Assembly: GCF_006345805.1 (NCBI RefSeq)
Contig: NC_043000.1
Coordinates: 148,056,001 to 148,120,000, forward strand
Direction: 5' to 3'
DNA length: 64,000 bases
From: Octopus sinensis
Taxonomy: Eukaryota
Shown: one piece after another, positions 1,370 to 39,035 of the stretch
Position numbering within the stretch: the first letter of the stretch is position 1
Layout: every line of letters begins with the position of its first letter
The notes under the pieces: generated by a model
The model's database searches: none
Seen by the model: only the letters and a program-made list of their open reading frames with translations
What the model was told of the DNA's origin: nothing
Position numbers and translations under genes: made by a program

Positions 1370-2531
1370 AAAATCCAGCAAGCTCATTTATGCCAAATGG
1401 CGTGGCTAATACAATTTCTGAATTTACGTGTAACCTGGAGGAGGGTATTATGTTTCTCGTGTATTATAGAAGATACGAGGAAATTTTTAACGAGTGCAAG
1501 TCATGGTTGGAGGAGTAGAAAGAAAGGTTTTTACTTTGCATGGTAGCTCCTGTCGAACATGAGCATTACTGTAACTTTATTTAAAGCAAACAGAAAAGTA
1601 CTTTCACGGCAATTGAAATCGCAAATGAAAAGTTCGACTGACTTGAAAAGAGTGGACTCATAAAAAAGGTGAATTATTCAAAGTGGGTGGCACCCATTGT
1701 ATATGTTAAAAAAACAATCTTTTGATTAGGTTGTGTGCTGATTTCTCTACAGGATTGAATGACTGCTTGAAAACATACTACCATCCACTCTCAACTGCAG
1801 AGGACATTTTTTTCAAAGTTAAATGGTGGGAAAAGTTTTTCCAAATTAGATCTGTATGAAGCCTATTTACAGATAAAAGTAAATGAAAGATTCTTAAAGT
1901 ATTTGGCAATAAATACACACAGAGGATTGCACAGATACACACGATTACCTTTTGGATTAAGAGTTACACCAGCAATATCCCAGCAAATCATCGATACTAT
2001 CTTATCTGATTGTGAATTTGCAATCCTGTTCTTTGACGCTATTTCGATCAAGAGTAATTCTTGTGAACAGCATGTGGAACACACAAAAGCTGTGTTCAAG
2101 AAAATTAAAGATTTTGGGTTCACTTTGGGAGAAGAAAAATGTGAATTCTTTCTACCCCAAATTAAGTACTTAAGGCAAATAATTGATAGAGGTGGTAGAT
2201 GTCCTGACCCATCAAGGGCAGATACAATAACGATTATGCCTTCACCGACAAATATTCCAACTTTACAAGCATTTCTTGGGTTGGCAAACTACTACCAAAA
2301 CTACAGTCCTAATATACACAAGTTAAGAACTCCATGACTTATTAAAAAAGAAAGTAAAGTAGAATTGGTCAGTTAAATGTCAGAACACTTGTAGTGTCTG
2401 ATGCTTCCGAGCACAGATTAGGTGCAGTTCTACTTCATAAACAAGAAGATGGAAGTACAAGACCAGTGGTTCATGTTTCATGCTTGCTAATAACAGCAGA
2501 GAAGAGATATTGTCAAATTGAAAAGGAGGCC
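1370..2531 (+). mobile_element. Ty3/gypsy LTR retrotransposon fragment (gag remnant, RT, RNase H), decayed
   Basis: Motifs WVAPIVYVKK, RLCADFSTGLN, FSKLDL, AINTHRGLHRYTRLPFG, EKCEF, LQAFLGLANYY, SDASEHRLGAVL and EKRYCQIEKEA. There are stops and frameshifts, and the YxDD motif is mutated. Confidence 0.9.
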
Positions 2532-4740
2532 TTCACGGATTTCCTCACCGGTCTATTGTGCCTCTTGGGGAGGGTGGTTAGGTGCTGTGAAGAGCCGATC
2601 ACAGTTGTAGAAGTGGAGGAGGCATTGTTGGAGTGTAGTGGGGCAGGTTGCAATGGTCTCCCCTATGAATTGCATTATACTATACCAGACTTGTTTGGGC
2701 ACCTGCTGGCCTGTGTCTTCAATAACTGGCAGGAGAATGAGAGTATTCTTGCATCTGTGAGCCAGGGAGTGGTGGTACTGATCAGAATGGACCCAAACAA
2801 GTGGAACGTAATTGACAACTTTACGCCTATCACTCTACTTAACACAGAGTTGAAGATTCTGGCCAAGGTTTTAGCAAAAAGGTTGGCAAAATTTGTGGAT
2901 GGTATCATTGGGCAGATACAAACCTATGCCATCCCTGATAGGGCCATACACAATATTCTCCACCTTATACGCTATACCTTAGAAGGGGTAAATAGGATTC
3001 CTGGCAAAGGTGGGGAGTTGGTCCATTTAGACCAATCCAAAGCCTTTGATAGAGCAGACCATCTGTATTTCGTGGTGGTCCTTGAAGCAGCTGGTTTTGG
3101 TCTGACATTCCATGGCTGGATCAATGCTTTAGGTAGCAACATCAAGTCAGTAGTTCAGGTGAATAGTTCTTTTTGGAGCCATTCAATATTGAATGCTCAG
3201 TTTGTCAAGATTGTCCACTCTTGCCCCTGTTGTATGAATTGGCTCTTGAGCCACTACTGCAAAGATTGGAGTCGATGAGTGAAGACCCACAAGATCTAGG
3301 GTATGGGAAGTCAGTCACAGCATATGCATACGATGTCACTCTCATATCCAGGGACCAGGACCTACAGAGTGTAGGTGAGGCCCTAAAGAATTATTAAGCA
3401 GTGGCAGGAACAAGAATTAACCGGGATAAGTTGGTTGGCTTGCAGCTCGGCTCCTGGAGAGGCAAGTCGATGCTCTCCAACAGCATCATCAGACACTGGA
3501 CAGACAGTCCGGTGAAAATGCTTGGAGTCTGATTTGGTCCAGACCTCCAGATAGAGAAGAGTTGGAGTGAGGTTAGGGGCAGGGTGGTGTCTATAACTGA
3601 GACCTGGTCTAGGCGGAGGCTATCTCTGAAAGGGAGGGCAGAGGTGGCAAATGCATTTATTGCATCTGTCATTACCTACCACCTAACCATCTTACCATGC
3701 CCCAATTTATGCTCATTCACTTCTTGTGGAAAGGAAGGCGGCCCCTTGTAAGGCACTCTATCTGCTGCCAACAGCCACTAAAGGGTGGGTTAGGGATGCC
3801 ATGGCTAAAGATGCATAGGCATGTGCTGAGGTTGAAGCAAATCTGGCTCTACCTGGATGGTGAGTGGGTGTGGTATCATTTGTTGATGAAATATTTCCCA
3901 GGTTCACCTCTTTTAGTGAACTGGAATGCTGGATAGCCATAGACCAAGACTGGGAGCTTGGCAAGCAGTGTCAACAGACACTCATTCAGGAGAGAAGCGG
4001 GCTAGTAGAGGGCAAGTGTGATGATGGCCTGGGGGAGACTCTGGGTTTCGATGAAAGTCAGCTTGCCAACCTTCATCGAAGGACTTTTGGCCTGGGACCT
4101 ATGGACAACTTCCAGAGGTACTTGGCTTGGCTGTGCTTCCGAAGTGCCTTGCCAGTTTGGAATAAATTCGCGAGGCATGGCCACATGGGTTCGCCTATAT
4201 GCCCACATTGTGGGCAGAGTAATGAAACTGTTCTGCATGCAATCGTACAGTGTCCAAGTCTCGGACCTGTGGGTTTCTACTGAACGGGTACTGTCACAGC
4301 TAGGGAGAGTACAGCTGTCAGCTGAGTCGATTATTAAGATTGTTCTGCCATCTCCTCTAAAAGGAGAAGAGAAATTCTGCTTTCTAGCCATAATAGCTAT
4401 AGCGAAAGAGGTGAACCTCTTTTTATATCACCTAAGAGGGAAAGCACATCTGGAGAAGAAATGCCTGACAATAAAAATGTACGAAAAATGATGGAAGAAA
4501 GTAGCCTGAATATTGGGTATGTAAGTGCCTAATTAAGCAGAGTAAAAAAAAAAAAAAAGTAAACAGTTCAATGCAGGAATGTAATTGGTGGGGGTTAAAC
4601 CCATACCATTTCCATTCATTCTTTCATCTTCATCTGAAGATGTATTTATTCATATGTGTAATCTCATTTGATAAGCTCCCGACCCCTATTTGTCTCGTGT
4701 ATAGTCCCCTCTTTGTTTAACCCTTGTGGTTTGAATAAAA
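2532..4740 (+). mobile_element. L1/Tx1-clade LINE ORF2 (RT plus C-terminal zinc finger) and 3' UTR, decayed
   Basis: Motifs NFTPITLLNTELKILAKVLAKRL, LDQSKAFDR, AYAYDV (YADD), FLWKGRRP, GGLGMP and CPHCGQSNETVLHAIVQCP. Several frameshifts; AATAAA near 4735. Confidence 0.9.
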
Positions 4741-4997: not shown

Positions 4998-5244
4998 GGT
5001 TATTGCCATTAGTTTTCATTATATTGTTATTATGTTGTTGGAGTGTATTCATTTATCCATAAGGATATAACAGATCTTGTCAAACCGTCCAACCAATTCC
5101 AGCATGAAGCAGGGACATTAAATGATGATGAATTTCAGAAGCAATCTTAATATTGATTTCAAGTTTCGGTGGAGGGGATAAGTTGATTACATGACCTCAA
5201 TGCAACTGGTACTTATTTTATGGACTCCAAAAGAAGGAAAAGCA

Positions 5245-5791
5245 AATTATGTACAGGTGATTGTGGAAAAGTTTGCATATATATATAGTGGTCGCATACT
5301 GTCAACTCAATGTGACAGTCCTGTAAGGGAATTACACCACCACCATTTAGCCTTAGGAAACATCAACGTCTCCTGTCGGCTTTGACACATTTTCTGCCTC
5401 CTTATATTTGCAAAGGGGAGGCAAACACCCCCGCAAGCTGGGAAAAGGCACCTGAAGACATATGTTTCTGAGTGTATTGCTCATCGTCAGTTCAGGGTAG
5501 CTTGCCTCGCTCGCTGAGATGACTGCAACCTCTCTGCAAATATATCATATATTCAGTAAAATTTATTTACTGATCACCGAAATTAGAAATATTGAATTTC
5601 TAAATGTCTCAGAGATGGTGGAGCAAATGTGTCAAAATGTGTCAAAGCTGATAGATGTCGATGTTTCCTAGGGCTAAACAGCGGTGATGTAATTCTCTTA
5701 TGGGACTGTCACATTGAGTTGACAGTATACGACCACTATATATATATATATATATATGTGCAAACTTTTCCACAATCACCTGTACATAATT
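5245..5791. mobile_element. Non-coding element with ~150-bp inverted arms enclosing a hammerhead motif
   Basis: 5245-5392 is the imperfect reverse complement of 5633-5791. The ORF track shows near-identical peptides on opposite strands (5191+ and 5642-). Confidence 0.8.
5451..5496 (-). ncRNA. Type I hammerhead ribozyme motif
   Basis: Minus strand reads CCUGAA CUGACGA UGAG-CAAUACA-CUCA GAAA C-AUAU-G UC UUCAGG: full core, 6-bp stem I, 4-bp stem II, palindromic stem III and a GUC site. Confidence 0.85.
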
Positions 5792-6819
5792 AAACAAACA
5801 CATACAAGCTTCTGATACATTTATAAAAGAAGCCTCCATGTCAATAATAGAGGATTAGCAACAAAAAGTTAATTAAATCAAAATTAATACAACTAGCAAA
5901 GTTCAAATGTGAACTATCTATAGTTAAATAGTGGTAACACATTTCCCAAATAATACATTCGAAATTTAAAGGAAATTCTTCATTAAATGTAGCTTTTGAA
6001 GAGTTCTTCATTTGTTTCTTACATTGTTTTTATGTTCCCCTTTCTAATTACAATAGCAGCAATAACAGTGGCCAACATGGTTGTATTGATGACAATAACA
6101 ATTATGACATAGGCAACAAATATTAATTGACTTTAAATAAAGAAAATTAACCTGATGTTCTTTTGACCAACAAACATTGTTCTTTTTGTGTTAGGTTTTC
6201 ATTTGTTTTTGTTTTTTCTACTAGTAGGAAAAACAAAAAACTGTCTAAAATTTATTTCTTACTTAGGTACAAGACTAATTGTTCAAGGAGATCAAAGTTA
6301 ATTACATCAATCTCAGTATTTTAGTAATATTAATTATAATAACATCAAAGTAATGATAGTTAAGGTCAGGTCTGGTAGGCTTTTAAATCATTTAGTTTGA
6401 TGCTCTGCTATCTCAGTTGTCTAAATTATCCTTAATTATAATATTAAATGTATTGGCTGATTGACAGTAACTAATAATTTAACTTGAGCAGGAAGTAATT
6501 TCTCAAGAAATATGTCCTGTGTGAGATATATTGTTTTGTCCAAATGCTTCAGGTAGATGTTGGGTCAATGTATTTTGTTTTAAGCATTTATAGATTTTTT
6601 TTTACATCTATTAGTTACTGGGGCAAGCATTTTACTGTTCATTACTGCCTGAAGAATGTTTTGTTGGTTTGCTCTTTTGGTCTTAAATCTTCCCTTTGTG
6701 ACCTAGAGGAAGCAACAGAAGTCACATTTGAATAAAATACTGTTAGTCAAAAGATTGACAGTTTGTATGTGTCACTAGTATTACACTGTGAATAAATACC
6801 ATGCAAAACTGCAGTTTAT

Positions 6820-7240
6820 TATTATTTATTACACACATGTGAGTGAGAACACTTTGAGATATTTTTGGTATCTAACATATGTCAGATACTGCGAGCGCTG
6901 CTTCTGATTGGTCAATCCATGGTGATGACCCGAGGTCATGGTGACAGCGCTGCTTCTGATTGGTCAATTCATGGTGATGACCCGAGGTCATGGTGACGGC
7001 ACTACTTTTGTCATTCATAAGTTACAACTAAACGTGAAGAATTTAGTTATTGGGTTAATGAAATATGGTCGTTTATTCGTGTGTAATAAATAAAATACCA
7101 AACTCATTCCCTATGGATACCGTATTTATTACAACTCGTGGCTTGTAAACGTATCTAACTCGCTTTCGCTCGTTAGATACGTTTACAAGCCACTCGTTGT
7201 AATACGGTATCCATAGGGAACTCGTTTGGTATTCTCTCTA
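6820..7240. mobile_element. Non-autonomous palindromic DNA element (Crypton-like, tentative)
   Basis: Inverted pair TATTTATTACACAC/GTGTGTAATAAATA, an internal ~52-bp tandem duplication containing CTGATTGG, then a 140-bp hairpin at 7094-7233. Confidence 0.55.
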
Positions 7241-7299
7241 TATTCCTAGTAATTTTTGAAAAGACATGAACATCATCTCATCTTATTTCTCAGTCACTT

Positions 7300-12844: not shown

Positions 12845-13808
12845 CACTACCGTCAGAAATTAATTAGCACCCTTGATTTGCTCTTCACTCAAGGTATGTG
12901 CTGTCACCTAGTGGCCATATCTCGAACTATTGCTTTGTTGCGAGTTCACTGTTGCGCAGAACGATGACGTAACTTTGTTTGCAGAGCGATTTGAAAGTCT
13001 ACAGCCTAATGATGTTGACATAGCAGTGCAACAACAACTTGGAGTGCGGATGCAGACAAATCTTCCTTTGTTTAATAGATATAGGTAGAGCCTCACAAGG
13101 ACCGAAATCACACCGTACTAAGTTTTCTCATCGCGTAAGACGTTTTGAACAGCTCGTAGGTTAATTGATTTGTGTATTTGCAAGATTTTTTTTCCTCACA
13201 AATTCTCCTACACTCTGCTTCGTGATGTCACTTCCGGTTCACAAAACTTTCTGTTATACATCAAATAAGGTGAGAAATTCTGCTTTCTTTCTTTTTTGTT
13301 TAATGAATAATAACTCATAGCAGTTTTGTTATAGCATAACATTATTCAAATGAATAGTTTTAATGAAAATAACTGGTTTTTATCGTTCATTCCTAGATGG
13401 GCCCAAGACCTCGCATGACCTTGGAGAGACGGTACGAGGCTCTCTCGTGGCGTGGGAAGCTGTCGGAGACTGCAATAGCCAGAAAACTTGGTGTAGCCAG
13501 GCGCACAATTCAGTGCTTATTTAAGAAATACGAGGAAACCGGATCAGCAGCTGACCAAAAGGGTAGGGGACGGAAGAGGCTGACGACCCAGCGGGAGGAC
13601 CGGATGCTGATCCGAAAGTCACTGAACAACCGAAGAGCAACGAGCCGGCAACTGGCGGAGGAGATGCAAAAGGTGACAGGGAAGCAGTTGTCTACAACCA
13701 CCGTCAAGACCAGATTACTGGATGCTGGTCTAAAATCCTGTAGGGCCGCCCATAAATGTAAGAAAATGTAGAAATTTGAGAAGTGCTAATTAATTTCTGA
13801 CGCAAGTG
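12845..13808 (+). mobile_element. Tc1/mariner transposon, internally deleted
   Basis: 26-bp TIRs CACTACCGTCAGAAATTAATTAGCAC / GTGCTAATTAATTTCTGACGCAAGTG (24/26 match), with TA on both sides. Confidence 0.92.
13397..13771 (+). CDS. Truncated Tc1 transposase: paired-type HTH DNA-binding region only, no DDE domain
   Basis: [17 protein letters not shown]...KYEETGS...[14 protein letters not shown]...TSRQLA...[14 protein letters not shown]. Open for 124 aa and ending just before the right TIR. Confidence 0.8.
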
Positions 13809-16228: not shown

Positions 16229-18657
16229 TGGGTGCTCTTTATGTGCAGCAAAGGAATCGTGGGGAGAAATTAGGACTTGAAAAAATGTAAATAGAGTTTG
16301 AGTTACTCAAACTCAGAGCATTAGATAATGAACAAAAATATAAAATGATTAATGAAGAAATGCACACTAAACTCATGAAATATGCTATGAATAACCTTTA
16401 GAAAGCGTTATAAAACTATGGAAAGGCAGCTGTAAATCAGAAGAAATAAATTCCCTGCAACAATGGGAAAACAGTGTTAACTTCGTCCTTAGTTATGAAG
16501 CTCAGTTTAAAAGAGACTACACTTCAGATAGTCCCTTCCTGAAAAAATATACAGAACAAATACATCTATAGAAATAAATACACATCCACCTAGATCAAAC
16601 TATAAACATCCAAAGAACACAAACACACAAAACTGACTTCTCACCTGGAAGTAAACCATTCTCAATCTAGTAATAGGGACAACTCACTAATGAGAAATAC
16701 TAGAAGAAACCAACCTAGGGTTAGGAGTAATTTTTTTCTCTCGAGCAACTAGAAACGTCCAATAGACTCCCTTAACCCCTTAACAAAGAAGCTCAACCTA
16801 TTTACCAAGACAGAGGTAATTGCCTTCCACAAAAAGGTTGGAATAAAACACAATATGACTTCTGTGACCAAATCCAAAATTTCCCATATACTTTCCATAA
16901 ACGAAAAATTAATTTGAACCTCAACAATCTAGAATGGAAAAATCTTATTGAACTACAAAACAACAAAGACCTGACAATTAAAGAAGCAGACAAAGGAAGT
17001 GCTGTAGTCCTGATGGACACAGAATACTATAAAAACCTAGTGCAGGAGTGGCTGTGTGGTAAGTAGCTTGCTAACCAACCACATAGTTCCGGGTTCAGTC
17101 CCACTGCATGGCATCTTGGGCAAGTGTCTTCTGCTATAGCCCCGGGCCGACCAATGCCTTGTGAGTGGATTTGGTAGACGGAAACTGAAAGAAGCCTGTC
17201 GGATATATGTATATATATATATGTATGCGTTTGTGTGTCTGTGTTTGTCCCCATAGCATTGCTTGACAACCGATGTTGGTGTGTTTATGTCCCCGTCACT
17301 TAGCGGTTCGGCAAAAAAGAGACCGATAGAATAAGTACTGGGCTTCCAAAGAATAAGTCCCGGGGTTGATTTGCTCAACTAAAGGTGGTGCTCCAGCATG
17401 GCCGCAGTCAAATGACTGAAACAAGTAAAAGAGAGAGTAAAAGAGAGAAAAGAGAGAGTTATCCATACTAGAAAATGATGCCTTCTACGAAAACGTTGTA
17501 AACTATAAACAACAAAAAACAATGAAAGATCTTGCATCTTTAATTCTTCTACATGGAAAAGACCTGACAGAAAAAGAAACAGACTACATCACGAACTTCA
17601 AATGTAAACCTAGTCTTTTTTATGGCCTACCTAAAATACACAAGGGCAAGATAATTAATGAAGCCTACAAACAATCATCAGGCAAATACATAAATATCCA
17701 AGCGACAGAAGACTTAACTTTAAGGCACATTATAGCTGGCCCAGCCTGTGAAACCCACTGCCTATGCAATTCTTTAGACATCCTACTGAAATCCTTGCTG
17801 AAATGCATCAAAAGTTTCATTAGAGATGATTTAGACATGCTAGAGCACCTACCAAAAACAATTAATGAATAGGCATTATTGGTGTCCTTTGATGTTATCA
17901 ATCTTTATACCAACATCCCACATGACAATGGAATAAAAACAATCAAATTCTGATTGGAAAAGTACCCCAAAGTACTCCTTGAATTCATAAATCAGATCTT
18001 TATTATTGAATCTTTAAAATTTATACTTCAGAACAATTATTTCCTATTTGATGACACATACTATTGTCAAAAATGCAGAGTTGCAATGGGAACAAAAGCA
18101 GCCCCTGTTCTTGCAAACTTGATTATGGGTTATTTTGAATTCACTATATATGAAATGTCACTTCAAAAATATGGTTATCCATTTCACCATTACATAAGAG
18201 AAAGCTGGGAAAGATGCCTGGATGACTGTTTTATCATTTTGAAGAAGACCATAACTTTTGGACTTCAAATCAACACTAAATGATATAAATAGTAACATTC
18301 AATTCACAATGGAATATAACAAAGAACAGCTCCCATTTTTGGATATCATGATAAAAAAAAGTCAACAACCAAATTATAACTGGCATCTATCCTAAACCAA
18401 CGGACTCGAAACAATATCTGTTTAACTCATGCCACCCGAAACACATTAAAACAAATATCCCCTTTAATTTGGCAAAAAGGATTTACACAATAGTGTCTGA
18501 TAGAACTACTCGGGATCTTTGTCTTCAAGATGTCAAAACAACACTAACTGAAAGGCAATATCCACCCTCACTTATAGCCGATGGAATTAAGTATGCCAAG
18601 AATTTAGACATAAAAACACTAAGGGCAACAATGCATAACACCATACCTCATCTTTGA
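16229..18657 (+). mobile_element. Penelope-like element, RT region, decayed and interrupted by a SINE
   Basis: Motifs TIKEADKGSAVV, FYGLPKIHK, SFIRD, LVSFDVINLYTNIPH, AMGTKAAPVLANL, CLDDCF, IQFTME, LPFLD, KPTDSKQY and SCHPKH. No GIY-YIG domain seen. Confidence 0.92.
17040..17458 (+). mobile_element. SINE family A (tRNA-headed, CORE-like)
   Basis: A box TGGCTGTGTGG, B box GGTTCAGTCCC, CORE-like CTTGGGCAAGT, internal TA/TG tract and (GTAAAAGA)n tail. Confidence 0.9.
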
Positions 18658-36219: not shown

Positions 36220-38785
36220 CATCATCATCATCATCATCATCGTTTAACGTCCGCTTTCCATGCTAGCATGGGTTGGACGGTTCAACTGGGGTCTGGCAAG
36301 CCCGAAGGCTGCACCAGGCCAGTCAGATCTGGCAGTGTTTCTACAGCTGGATGCCCTTCCTAACGCCAACCACTCCAAGAGTGTAGTGGGTGATTTTATG
36401 TGCCACCGACACAGGTGCCAGACGAGGCTGGCAGACGGCCACGCTCGGATGGTGTTTTTTATGTGCCACCGACACAGGTGCCAGACGAGGCTGGCTGACG
36501 GCCACGCTCGGATGGTGTTTTCTTATGTGTCACCGACACAGGTGCCAGACGAGGCTGGCGGACGGCCACGCTCGGATGGTGTTTGTTACGTGCCCTCAGC
36601 ATGGAGGCCAGTCGTTGCGGTACTGGCTACGGTCACATTCGGGTGGGTTTTCTTATGTGCCACAAGGGTACAAATTCCATTGATGTACATCTATTTTGAT
36701 TTGGTTCGATTTGATTTGATTCGGTTCTCACTTGCCTCAACAGGTCTTCAACAAGTGTCACAAGAAGGAAGGTATGCACAGGTGGACTGACTACGTCCCA
36801 GGTAGGGGCCACGGATTATGGTTTCACTAGTCTTGCCGGGTCTTCTCACGCACAGCATACTTCCATAGGTCTCGGTCTCTAGTCATTTCCATGGTGAGAC
36901 CTAACGTCCGAAGGTCGTGCTTCACCACCTCGTCCCAGGTTTTCCTGGGTCTACCTCTTCCACGGGTTCCCTCAACTGCTAGGGATTGGCACTTTCTCAC
37001 ACACCTATCTTCATCCATTCTCGCCACATGACCATACCAGCGCAATCGTCTCTCTTGCACACCACAACTGATGCTTCTTAGGTACAACATTTCTCTCAAG
37101 GTACTAACGCTCTGTCGAGTAAGTACACTGACATTACACATCCATCGGAGCATACTGGCTTCGTTCCTCGCGAGCTTACGCATGTCCTCAGCAGTCACGG
37201 CCCATGTTTCACTGCCATGTAGCATAGCTGTTCGTACACATGCATCATACAGTCTGCCTTTTACTCTGAGCGAGAGGCCTTTAGTCACCAGCAGAGGTAA
37301 GAGCTCCCTAAACTTTGCCCAGGCTATTCTTATTCTAGCAGTTACACTTTCAGCACACCCACCCCCACTACTGACTTGGTCACCTAGATAGCGGAAGCTA
37401 TCAACTACTTCTAGTTTTTCCCCCCGGAAAGTGACGGAAGTTGTTTTCTGCAGATTTTCGGAGGTCAATGCTCCAGAGCATCTGCCACATACAAAAACTA
37501 TCTTCCCAGTTAGCCTACCTTTGACATTGCTGCACCTCTTATGTGTCCATAGCTTACACTGGGTACATCTTATAGAGTTTCTACCCACACCCTTTCTACA
37601 GATCGAGCAGGGCCATCTTCCTGAGGATATTTGTGGATTGTCTACCTTTCTACTTATTAGTACTTTGGTTTTAGCTAGGTTGACTCTAAGGCCCCTCGAT
37701 TCTAAACCCTCCTTCCACACCTGGAACTTCTCCTCCAGTTCTGATAGTGACTCAGCAATTAGAGCGAGGTCGTCAGCATAGAGGAGCTCCCAGGGGCAAC
37801 CTGTCTTGAATTCCTCCACAATTGCCTGGAGGACTATGATAAATAGGAGGGGGCTGAGTACTGAACCCTGGTGGACCCCAACCTCTACTTTGAATTCTTC
37901 TGTGTACATGTTGCCAACTCTAACCTACTTACGGCATCTCTGTACATGGCTTGCACAGCCCTCACCAGCCATTCATCTATCCCTAGTTTCCTCATTGACC
38001 ACCAGATGAGGGATCGGGGGACCCTATCAAAAGCTTTCTCCATGTCAACGAAAGCCAGGTACAGGGGCTTATCTTTGGCTAGGTATTTCTCCTGCAGCTG
38101 CCTTACCAGGAATATAGCATCAGTGGTGCTTTTCCCTGGGACAAACCCAAACTGCATCTCATCTAAACTAACTCTCTCTCTAATTAGTTGGGCTATGACC
38201 CTTTCCGTAACCTTCATTACCTGATCCAACAGCTTGATACCTCTGTAATTATTTGTATCTAGGGCATCACCTTTACCTTTGTAGCAGTTGACTAGTATGC
38301 TGCTACACCAGTCATTGGGTATGACTCCTTCGTGTATCACCTGGTTGACTATACGGGTGACTAGGTTATAGCCGACACTGCCAGATATTTTGAGCATCTC
38401 TGCAGTAATTCCTGATGGGCCTGGGGCTTTCCCTGTCTTCATGCTTCTAATTGCCTTAGCTACCACGGAACTATCAACTCGGATAGCTGGTCCCTCTGTT
38501 GGGTCAACATTCGGCAGACTCTCTTTATCCCACTCATTTTCTTTATTCAGCAACCTTTCATAGTGGCATCTCCAAACCTCTCTCTTTGCATCCTCATTTA
38601 GCGCAAGTGAACCATCATCCATGCGAACACACTTCTCTCCTACCACGTCACGATTCTCTCTCACACATTGTCTTGCAACACGAAATACCTCAAGTCTTTC
38701 ATCCTCACGGCTCAGAACATTGGCAAATTTTTTCTTATCCGCTTCCCCTCTGGCTAAATATACCTGTCTCCTAGCTTCCCTTTTG
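36220..38785 (-). mobile_element. RTE-clade LINE, 5'-truncated and relatively young
   Basis: RT ORF remains nearly intact, followed by a 3' UTR with ~52-bp repeats and a (GAT)n tail. Confidence 0.95.
36827..38785 (-). pseudogene. RTE reverse transcriptase (frameshift near 37920; endonuclease domain missing)
   Basis: KAPGPSG, NYRGIKLL, QFGFVPGKSTTDAIF, FVDMEKAFDRVP, GVHQGSVLSPLLF, LLYADD, FRYLG, HGSETW, RLRWYGHV and GRPRKTW. Confidence 0.95.
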
Positions 38786-39035
38786 GCCAGTGTATATTAT
38801 TTAGCTATGTGGTAAATTAAAAATATGAGTATATGATTTGATTTATATTATTTTCGTTCGGAAGTATAAAAGCTAATTCTAAAGGTGTTTTACTGTATTT
38901 TTAGAATATTGATTAGTGAGGTGAGCATAACTTTTTAGTAAATATATGATCTGAAGTAATATATTTATAGGGTATAGAGTAAAAGAAAACTTAGAAATTT
39001 GAATAAATTTGGGTCTTTTTGAAGACATTTTATTA

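Follow-up and report, generated by a model that had tools for sequence, protein, structure and literature searches.

The locus at 5245–5791 of the window (the whole 64-kb stretch of Octopus sinensis DNA that was analysed) has the shape of a MITE, with long inverted arms around a hammerhead ribozyme motif, and we asked what kind of element could have left it there. The initial annotation had proposed a non-autonomous element, either a foldback mobilised by a Penelope enzyme or a TA-targeting DNA MITE that had captured a ribozyme, with the RNA of the arm-core-arm unit folding into a long duplex capped by the self-cleaving domain. Here we propose that the locus very probably consists of two incomplete copies of a repeat that meet head to head within a TA tract and were inserted by a Penelope-like reverse transcriptase (RT) with a GIY-YIG endonuclease.

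Structure of the locus

The inverted arms are real, with 5245–5393 pairing with 5634–5791 (82.6% over a gapped alignment of 161 columns). The spacer between them is 240 nt long and holds the hammerhead (minus strand, 5496–5451) and two small hairpins (5553–5573 and 5583–5603). The arms carry TA tracts of unequal length, 10 nt in the left one (5277–5286) and 20 nt in the right one (5737–5756), and none of the window ORFs of at least 110 aa overlaps the locus. In all of these features the initial annotation was confirmed. Folded as RNA, the whole locus reaches −299 kcal/mol against a shuffle mean of −134 (z −24.5), with 0 of 100 shuffles equally stable.

Each arm is composite and is made of 33 nt of host DNA, the target TA tract and about 105 nt of a repeat, so that the locus is a near-full copy of this repeat (5287–5615, minus strand) head to head with a 104-nt copy (5634–5737). 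To its left lies a fragment of another high-copy repeat (5161–5246), which we take to be SINE-like and which stops exactly at the start of the left arm, with a 2-nt overlap (AA). This fragment has 39 other matches (464 candidates), most of which end at the query base corresponding to 5246 (base 67), and all 5 other copies that were examined run on differently past that base. The left arm starts with a derived inverted copy of 33 nt of right-flank host DNA (5245–5277, minus strand), which is outside the repeat and identical to 5759–5791 (33/33); a 25-mer of it, searched with up to 2 mismatches, was found at only two sites in the genome assembly, the two arms.

The left (TA)n tract, read from the sequence as target DNA, is followed by the long piece (5287–5615, minus strand), which represents positions 26–354 of the repeat monomer in the ribozyme sense and differs from the column majority at 13 of 333 aligned sites; its RNA 3′ end, at a position referred to here as site A, faces left. 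Within it, on the same strand, are the type I hammerhead motif (5451–5496) with its predicted cut between 5457 and 5456, a small AT-rich hairpin of the monomer (5553–5573, from fold and sequence), and the hairpin at 5583–5603, with site B as its 3′ foot; this is the other position preferred for RNA 3′ ends in the family and is internal in the window copy. At the head-to-head junction (5616–5633), comparison of the window sequence with the family copies shows that the long piece has lost 11 nt, beyond which 9 nt of it remain; these are followed by a duplicate of 9 nt from the start of the short piece. The short piece (5634–5737, plus strand; monomer positions ~247–354) shows 9 differences in 109 aligned sites and a 3-nt deletion found in 0 of 98 other copies, and its RNA 3′ end, at site A, faces right. 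It runs into the right (TA)n tract, which was also read from the sequence as target DNA, and beyond this, 5759–5791 (plus strand) is single-copy host DNA in its native place, which runs on into the unique right flank and has 2 genome matches, its own site and the left arm. Both RNA 3′ ends of the locus point outward into the TA tracts.

The only monomer blocks matched by contigs of organisms E and F were 5555–5615 (the block with the 5583–5603 hairpin), 5367–5425 and 5665–5727, with the ribozyme region unmatched; these blocks are candidate recognition signals for the enzyme. A second, shorter nested inverted repeat, with arms of 41 and 33 nt and a 12-nt loop, was seen elsewhere in the window (7086–7241).

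A dispersed 354-nt repeat with a hammerhead motif

A genome search with the whole locus gave 2586 candidates, and most of the scored loci (at least 40) match only query bases ~33–371, at 91–96% identity. In other copies, the sequence past window position 5615 runs through a 25-nt linker back into 5287. Thus, the repeated unit is a monomer of about 354 nt, and the mobile unit is this dispersed repeat with its type I hammerhead, not the arm-core-arm structure proposed at first. The monomer (354 nt, GC 42%) is strongly self-paired (fold z −8.2). An exact A-site 21-mer at the 3′ end has 149 copies in the genome and the hammerhead core 78, both being exact-pattern counts and hence lower bounds.

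The hammerhead, read on the minus strand from 5496 to 5451, has a helix I of 6 bp, the CUGACGA box, a helix II of 4 bp, GAAA and a GUC cut site, while helix III has 2 bp with a palindromic loop. The call rests on our own motif scan, at which it was the sole match in the 64-kb window. An Rfam search missed it, with 0 matches at the gathering score and the hammerhead not among 8 weak ones at E ≤ 10, and taken alone it is no more stable than shuffled sequences (z −1.28; 17/200). A plus-strand look-alike near 5570–5610 was rejected by eye and is absent from the motif-scan output.

Helix sizes and a palindromic loop like these are described for the canonical metazoan hammerhead in passages of PMC4209133, and passages of the same paper and of PMC7229834 report that such motifs cleave well mainly as dimers. 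The hammerhead of the window family is predicted to cleave only as a dimer, via its palindromic helix III. Among 92 motifs from this and related subfamilies, the pairs of helices I and II covary (A-U to G-C at several positions), and helix III is palindromic in 83 of the 92, with 6 different palindromes. As the set was chosen by a pattern that requires pairing and the copies are related rather than independent, this covariation supports the ribozyme and does not prove it. Intact hammerhead cores number 58 for the 72 pieces that span the ribozyme. Antisense hammerhead-like motifs with a long helix II were also seen at two loci (L206 and L211), downstream of the GIY-YIG domains of another Penelope-like family.

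Insertion footprints of the family

We classed 112 insertions after the removal of 7 redundant loci; the sample is biased, as 37 of them, including the window locus, come from a similarity ranking and the other 75 required the exact A-site 21-mer. Head-to-head layouts, with an inverted 5′-truncated copy at the 5′ end, make up 53 of the insertions, and the other 59 are one-sided. The initial annotation had considered a one-off foldback duplication: the inverted layout as such is common (53/112), and the exact layout with inverted host DNA is unique to the window (1/112). The 53 head-to-head loci have 52 distinct junction pairs, with the single repeated pair being a probable duplicate (probable duplicate locus pairs are L020/L128 and L070/L071). 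The arms are formed anew at each insertion, which speaks against a ribozyme-capped duplex as the mobile unit.

The outer RNA 3′ ends cluster at monomer positions 354/2–6 (site A) and 57–62 (site B), 59 nt apart. Both ends could be classed in 39 head-to-head loci, with 37 being A+B, one B+B and one, the window locus, A+A. If the ends were independent, the A+B excess would have P = 1.4e-9, and in the pattern-found subset A+B accounts for 21 of 22; in 3 of the 37 A+B loci, and in the only B+B one, the call depends on a piece of at most 22 nt, some of these pieces overlapping a self-complementary hairpin. An end was unclassed in 14 of the 53 loci, and in 4 of these the piece continues into the protein-bearing long form described below. 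One A end with one B end is the rule for head-to-head insertions with both ends classed, counted in 37 of 39, and the window locus breaks it.

At TA-free A+B loci, a direct repeat of 10–14 nt is present at the ends in 12 of 18, while 61 of the 112 insertions touch (TA)4 or more at an end. Partial tandems in the pseudo-LTR style, longer than one monomer, account for 39 of 144 A/B-ended pieces; the window copy is not one of them. Of 151 derived non-CpG variants in 30 pairs of arms, 8 are common to both arms of a locus, a rate of 10.6% against a mean of 2.6% and a maximum of 9.9% in 1000 shuffles of the pairs, and this excess modestly favours a single source template per insertion. A-to-I editing of the arms, which had been suggested as something to look for, left no signature in the sequence variants of the window or the family copies. 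A>G changes are 2 of 13 and 0 of 9 in the two window pieces. Family-wide, 235 A>G against 126 T>C changes were counted, but the excess is gone among rare variants (54 vs 54) and is due to few shared sites, so that editing was rejected.

These footprints support the part of the initial annotation that saw a non-autonomous, Penelope-mobilised element, and the following course of insertion may be proposed. The repeat would be transcribed as an RNA of more than unit length or a circular one. The enzyme, probably a dimer, would cut the two strands of AT-rich DNA at positions staggered by about 12 nt. Each cut strand would then prime a cDNA, with site A as the starting point for one strand and site B, 59 nt further on in the RNA, for the other. 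Joining of the two unfinished cDNAs at their growing ends would give inverted arms of variable length, and repair would leave the direct duplication of 10–14 bp.

The genome carries RT and GIY-YIG open frames of 770–850 aa with a cysteine linker, which by our own reading appear Neptune-like. In blastn comparisons with a small sample of candidate loci, 35 of 4738 for PLE RT and 30 of 5029 for GIY-YIG, the monomer showed no similarity, and strict and relaxed motif scans of the sampled loci detected no matching hammerhead. PLE fragments near two long-form loci (L242 and L243) were rejected as partners, being 22–35% identical neighbours outside the element ends. A young RT and GIY-YIG family (L150–L152, L154 and L161) has 782-aa frames with tandem and inverted ends, its first three members being 98–99% identical; our own motif scans found no hammerhead in this family.

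The window itself holds several other mobile-element remnants. A frameshifted Neptune-like Penelope RT remnant at 16800–18651, whose main stretch is 68–83% identical to other copies, has no sequence kinship to the monomer. Two long frames of 365 and 303 aa at 36827–38796 (minus strand) look like LINE RT (RTE-like, by our own reading). At 1771–3278, an LTR retrotransposon is represented by pieces of its RT (RVT_1) and RNase H, after which a second RT fragment follows in frame, and an N-terminal fragment of a Tc1/Tc3-type transposase (PF01498, E 7e-11) is at 13397–13771.

The exceptional A+A ends of the window locus

The right outer 33 nt continue into unique DNA, and the left copy interrupts another repeat at 5246; the right copy is therefore taken as native and the left one as derived. 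The right flank is covered by contigs of two organisms, E and F; one contig of E spans 5767–6374 with about 6% divergence and comes from a run that leaves the ribozyme region uncovered. The left junction is not an assembly error, as a contig from another study (run X2, organism B) spans 5045–5274 with one difference. The window locus has neither a B end nor a direct target duplication, and a flanking inverted match of at least 11 nt was found elsewhere among the 112 loci only once, as one 11-mer (L027).

We lean towards a later template switch between the arms, which would have placed a copy of the right TA tract, together with 33 nt of host DNA, at the left end and deleted the old left flank, since a single step would then explain why the B end and the direct duplication are absent and the flank is cut. 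Granted the main explanation, it is also quite possible that the A+A ends, with which alone this alternative is concerned, go back to two separate insertions. A short A-ended copy would have occupied the TA tract first, and a second one would later have been primed from that host end, e.g. on the sister chromatid, and resolved with the 33 nt of host DNA inverted. This would fit the greater divergence of the short piece (best match 90.7%, with its unique 3-nt deletion) compared to the overlapping part of the long piece (96.3%), the 0 derived variants shared by the window arms and the fully identical host duplication (33/33). On the other hand, 9/109 vs 13/333 differences are a small sample, ordinary A+B loci mostly share no arm variants either (none in 22 of 30 pairs), and two insertions at one TA tract would be needed.

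A protein-bearing long form

At five loci, the monomer sequence breaks off at position 153 and passes into a common body of about 1.6 kb, and a sixth locus holds this body beside a monomer. The body gave 307 candidates by DNA and at least 147 scored matches by protein, many with open frames of 440–470 aa, and some of its copies are in tandem at a spacing of about 1.7 kb. It encodes a CCHC zinc-knuckle protein: Pfam zf-CCHC was matched in a 460-aa frame at E 0.0026, below the cut-off, and in a relative at E 9.2e-5, above it. A single protein homologue was found, labelled Octopus bimaculoides. A protein atlas placed the body protein near CCHC and ZCCHC3-like clusters (0.91–0.92), with a recognition score under the reliability mark, and a PDB search with the gag-like protein returned weak zinc-knuckle matches only (E 0.14 or worse). 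Among 7 natural frames, picked for being open, dN/dS was 0.08–0.66 in every one of the 21 pairs.

The body ends at AATAAA, after which a hammerhead follows in 22 of 36 DNA-similar loci and in 5 of 20 more distant ones. A subfamily-specific repeat of at least 12 nt flanks the body on both sides in 9 of the 16 copies with both junctions, and in the closest copies (L165 and L166) it consists of 18–20 nt at the start of the hammerhead; thus, deletion of the body between the repeats would yield the monomer. One long form (L243) has A and B ends and a 12-nt duplication, the same footprint as the short form. No Penelope-type RT was found beside the body in 36 loci, and no RT-like frame of at least 250 aa in 20 loci. 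A fused longer homologue of the gag-like protein was not found, which is weak evidence, and no parent LINE of the long form was found in the loci examined.

Judged from these sequences, the long form appears to carry a single ORF1/gag-like gene without RT, with dN/dS below 1 suggesting purifying selection. An origin from a LINE with mobilisation by the ORF2 of that LINE does not seem to apply, as the ends and footprints are Penelope-type. We give about an even chance to the wider reading that the 354-nt repeat is the empty form of long-lived Penelope-dependent retroelements that encode only a gag/ORF1-like RNA-binding protein, a counterpart of HeT-A and HAL1. Their cassette would be gained and lost at the short repeat beside the hammerhead, and an asymmetric dimer would prime at A on one strand and at B on the other.

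Related sequences were seen in other settings. A distantly related form of the gag-like zinc-knuckle protein is present in the window at 3–330 as a broken fragment (43% over 74 aa, E 1.6e-17). Tandem arrays of three to five gag-like genes, spaced at about 1.7 kb and with many frames open, were seen at L233 (C5:62290100-62300000) and L234–L238; no hammerhead was detected in these arrays, and L233 ends in an inverted partial copy.

Alternative explanations

The alternative of a classical non-LTR retrozyme, with a monomer excised by two hammerheads, circularised and copied as a circle by a rolling mechanism, refers to the RNA intermediate and could hold together with a Penelope-type enzyme. We regard it as rather unlikely, though the unit itself has retrozyme size and composition: it is non-coding and within 150–450 nt, has a GC content below 50% and a canonical type I hammerhead, is highly self-paired and falls within the size range given in passages of PMC7229834. 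In addition, 39 of the 144 A/B-ended pieces exceed one monomer and 74 run across the ribozyme cut site, as a circle would allow. Tandem pairs of a 13-nt ribozyme motif at monomer spacing, however, number only 2 against 78 cores (counted with different patterns), and the longest piece, of 556 nt, has at most 1.6 units. As no piece reaches two monomers, rolling-circle copying gains no support, and the tandem dimers to multimers with at least two hammerheads by which non-LTR retrozymes are recognised are not typical of the family. Only 4 of 172 pieces have their RNA 5′ end within −6 to +8 of the predicted cut, and no pile-up of 5′ ends was seen there among the 172. With half of the pieces crossing the cut site and no such pile-up, the template would be a circle or a longer RNA that had not been cleaved, and cleaved linear monomers were not the principal one.

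It is very unlikely that a LINE enzyme (RTE, L2 or L1 type) copied the repeat in place of a Penelope-like one, with the inversion arising by twin priming. LINE-type RT frames are present in the window, by our own reading of the translations, the long form bears a LINE-ORF1-like gene, and no Penelope partner was found among the loci sampled; yet the layout fits the Penelope footprint published in the relevant passages of PMC8557442 and PMC3846280. Moreover, the two pieces cover overlapping parts of the RNA, their starts are fixed at two internal sites, and there is no poly(A) tail. In L1 twin priming, the two pieces are not known to overlap.

A TA-targeting DNA MITE with 150-bp terminal inverted repeats and a captured ribozyme is refuted in spite of the shape of this single locus (short, without an ORF, with inverted arms in a TA context) and of the TA then CAGGTG in its outer arm, presumably resembling Tc1/mariner ends, since the outer termini are found only here, with no second copy in the genome, and run on into unique flank in organism E. 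The TA tracts belong to the target, and the family has variable arms and junctions, no shared termini, RNA-type truncation and target duplications of 10–14 bp rather than a TA dinucleotide at fixed ends.

Comparison with known systems

Returning to the Penelope-type insertion that we prefer, passages of PMC8557442 describe partial tandems, an inverted 5′-truncated copy, a tail at one end only and a TA bias for Penelope-like insertions, and those of PMC3846280 describe target duplications of 8–10 bp and mobilisation in trans. A Penelope-like protein, predicted to be a dimer, cut both strands of AT-rich DNA in vitro with both being extended, and started reverse transcription at two internal RNA sites bounding the tail (passages of PMC11167929). 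The window family is like these elements, as far as those passages go, in the partial tandem, the inverted truncated copy, the one-end tail, the hammerhead, the AT/TA targets, the duplication of about 10 bp and the two RT start sites. It differs in having no RT/endonuclease gene and in the length of the tail, 59 nt vs the published 30–40. Furthermore, the passages on Penelope-like elements have the tail often at one end and the start sites equal between strands in vitro, whereas here the A+B pairing was counted in 37 of 39 loci.

Animal retrozymes have been argued to be non-autonomous Penelope derivatives (passages of bioRxiv 10.64898/2026.07.22.740005). With the metazoan non-LTR retrozymes described in parts of PMC7229834 and of this preprint, the family shares a non-coding unit (354 nt) with GC below 45%, a canonical type I hammerhead with a short palindromic helix III, self-paired RNA, a target duplication of more than 4 bp and a proposed Penelope helper. 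Unlike them, it consists of dispersed pieces of at most 1.6 units, and complete tandem dimers are rare.

For the long form, two precedents may be considered. Penelope-mediated gene cargo between pLTRs is known in Adineta vaga (passages of PMC3846280), where, as in L243, the ends of the element enclose an unrelated gene, one end is inverted and the target is duplicated. The case described there is a single host-gene event, while here a gag/ORF1-like gene has at least 147 matches, open frames and dN/dS below 1. ORF1-only dependent elements are known for LINEs, namely HeT-A, HAL1 and Ag-Sponge (passages of PMC5786205). Like them, the long form encodes only an ORF1/gag-like protein and would rely on the RT of another element; they derive from Jockey, L1 and CR1 LINEs, respectively, whereas the long form has Penelope-type ends and footprints and a hammerhead.

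On the sequence evidence, we class the locus as an apparent insertion of a non-autonomous Penelope-type element, retrozyme-like in its working but without tandem multimers, and not a MITE. In the published literature covered, outside which were Repbase, subscription papers and supplements that may hold such records, we found no report of this repeat family, no count of A/B end pairing and no ORF1-only Penelope-dependent element. The layout of the Penelope footprint is known; the A+B rule and the long form with its gag-like protein appear to be new.

Biological significance

The locus itself is ordinary, with the typical look of a Penelope-type insertion plus one local rearrangement, and it is a warning that MITE-shaped repeats in such genomes can be retroelement scars. 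The rule of one A end and one B end is a sharp and testable constraint on the still undefined integration of Penelope elements, and it comes with a short natural substrate. Expanded CCHC families have been reported in cuttlefish without a link to Penelope (PMC13218726). The long form suggests that some zinc-knuckle gene expansions in cephalopods may be cargo of ribozyme-bearing retroelements and not domesticated genes.
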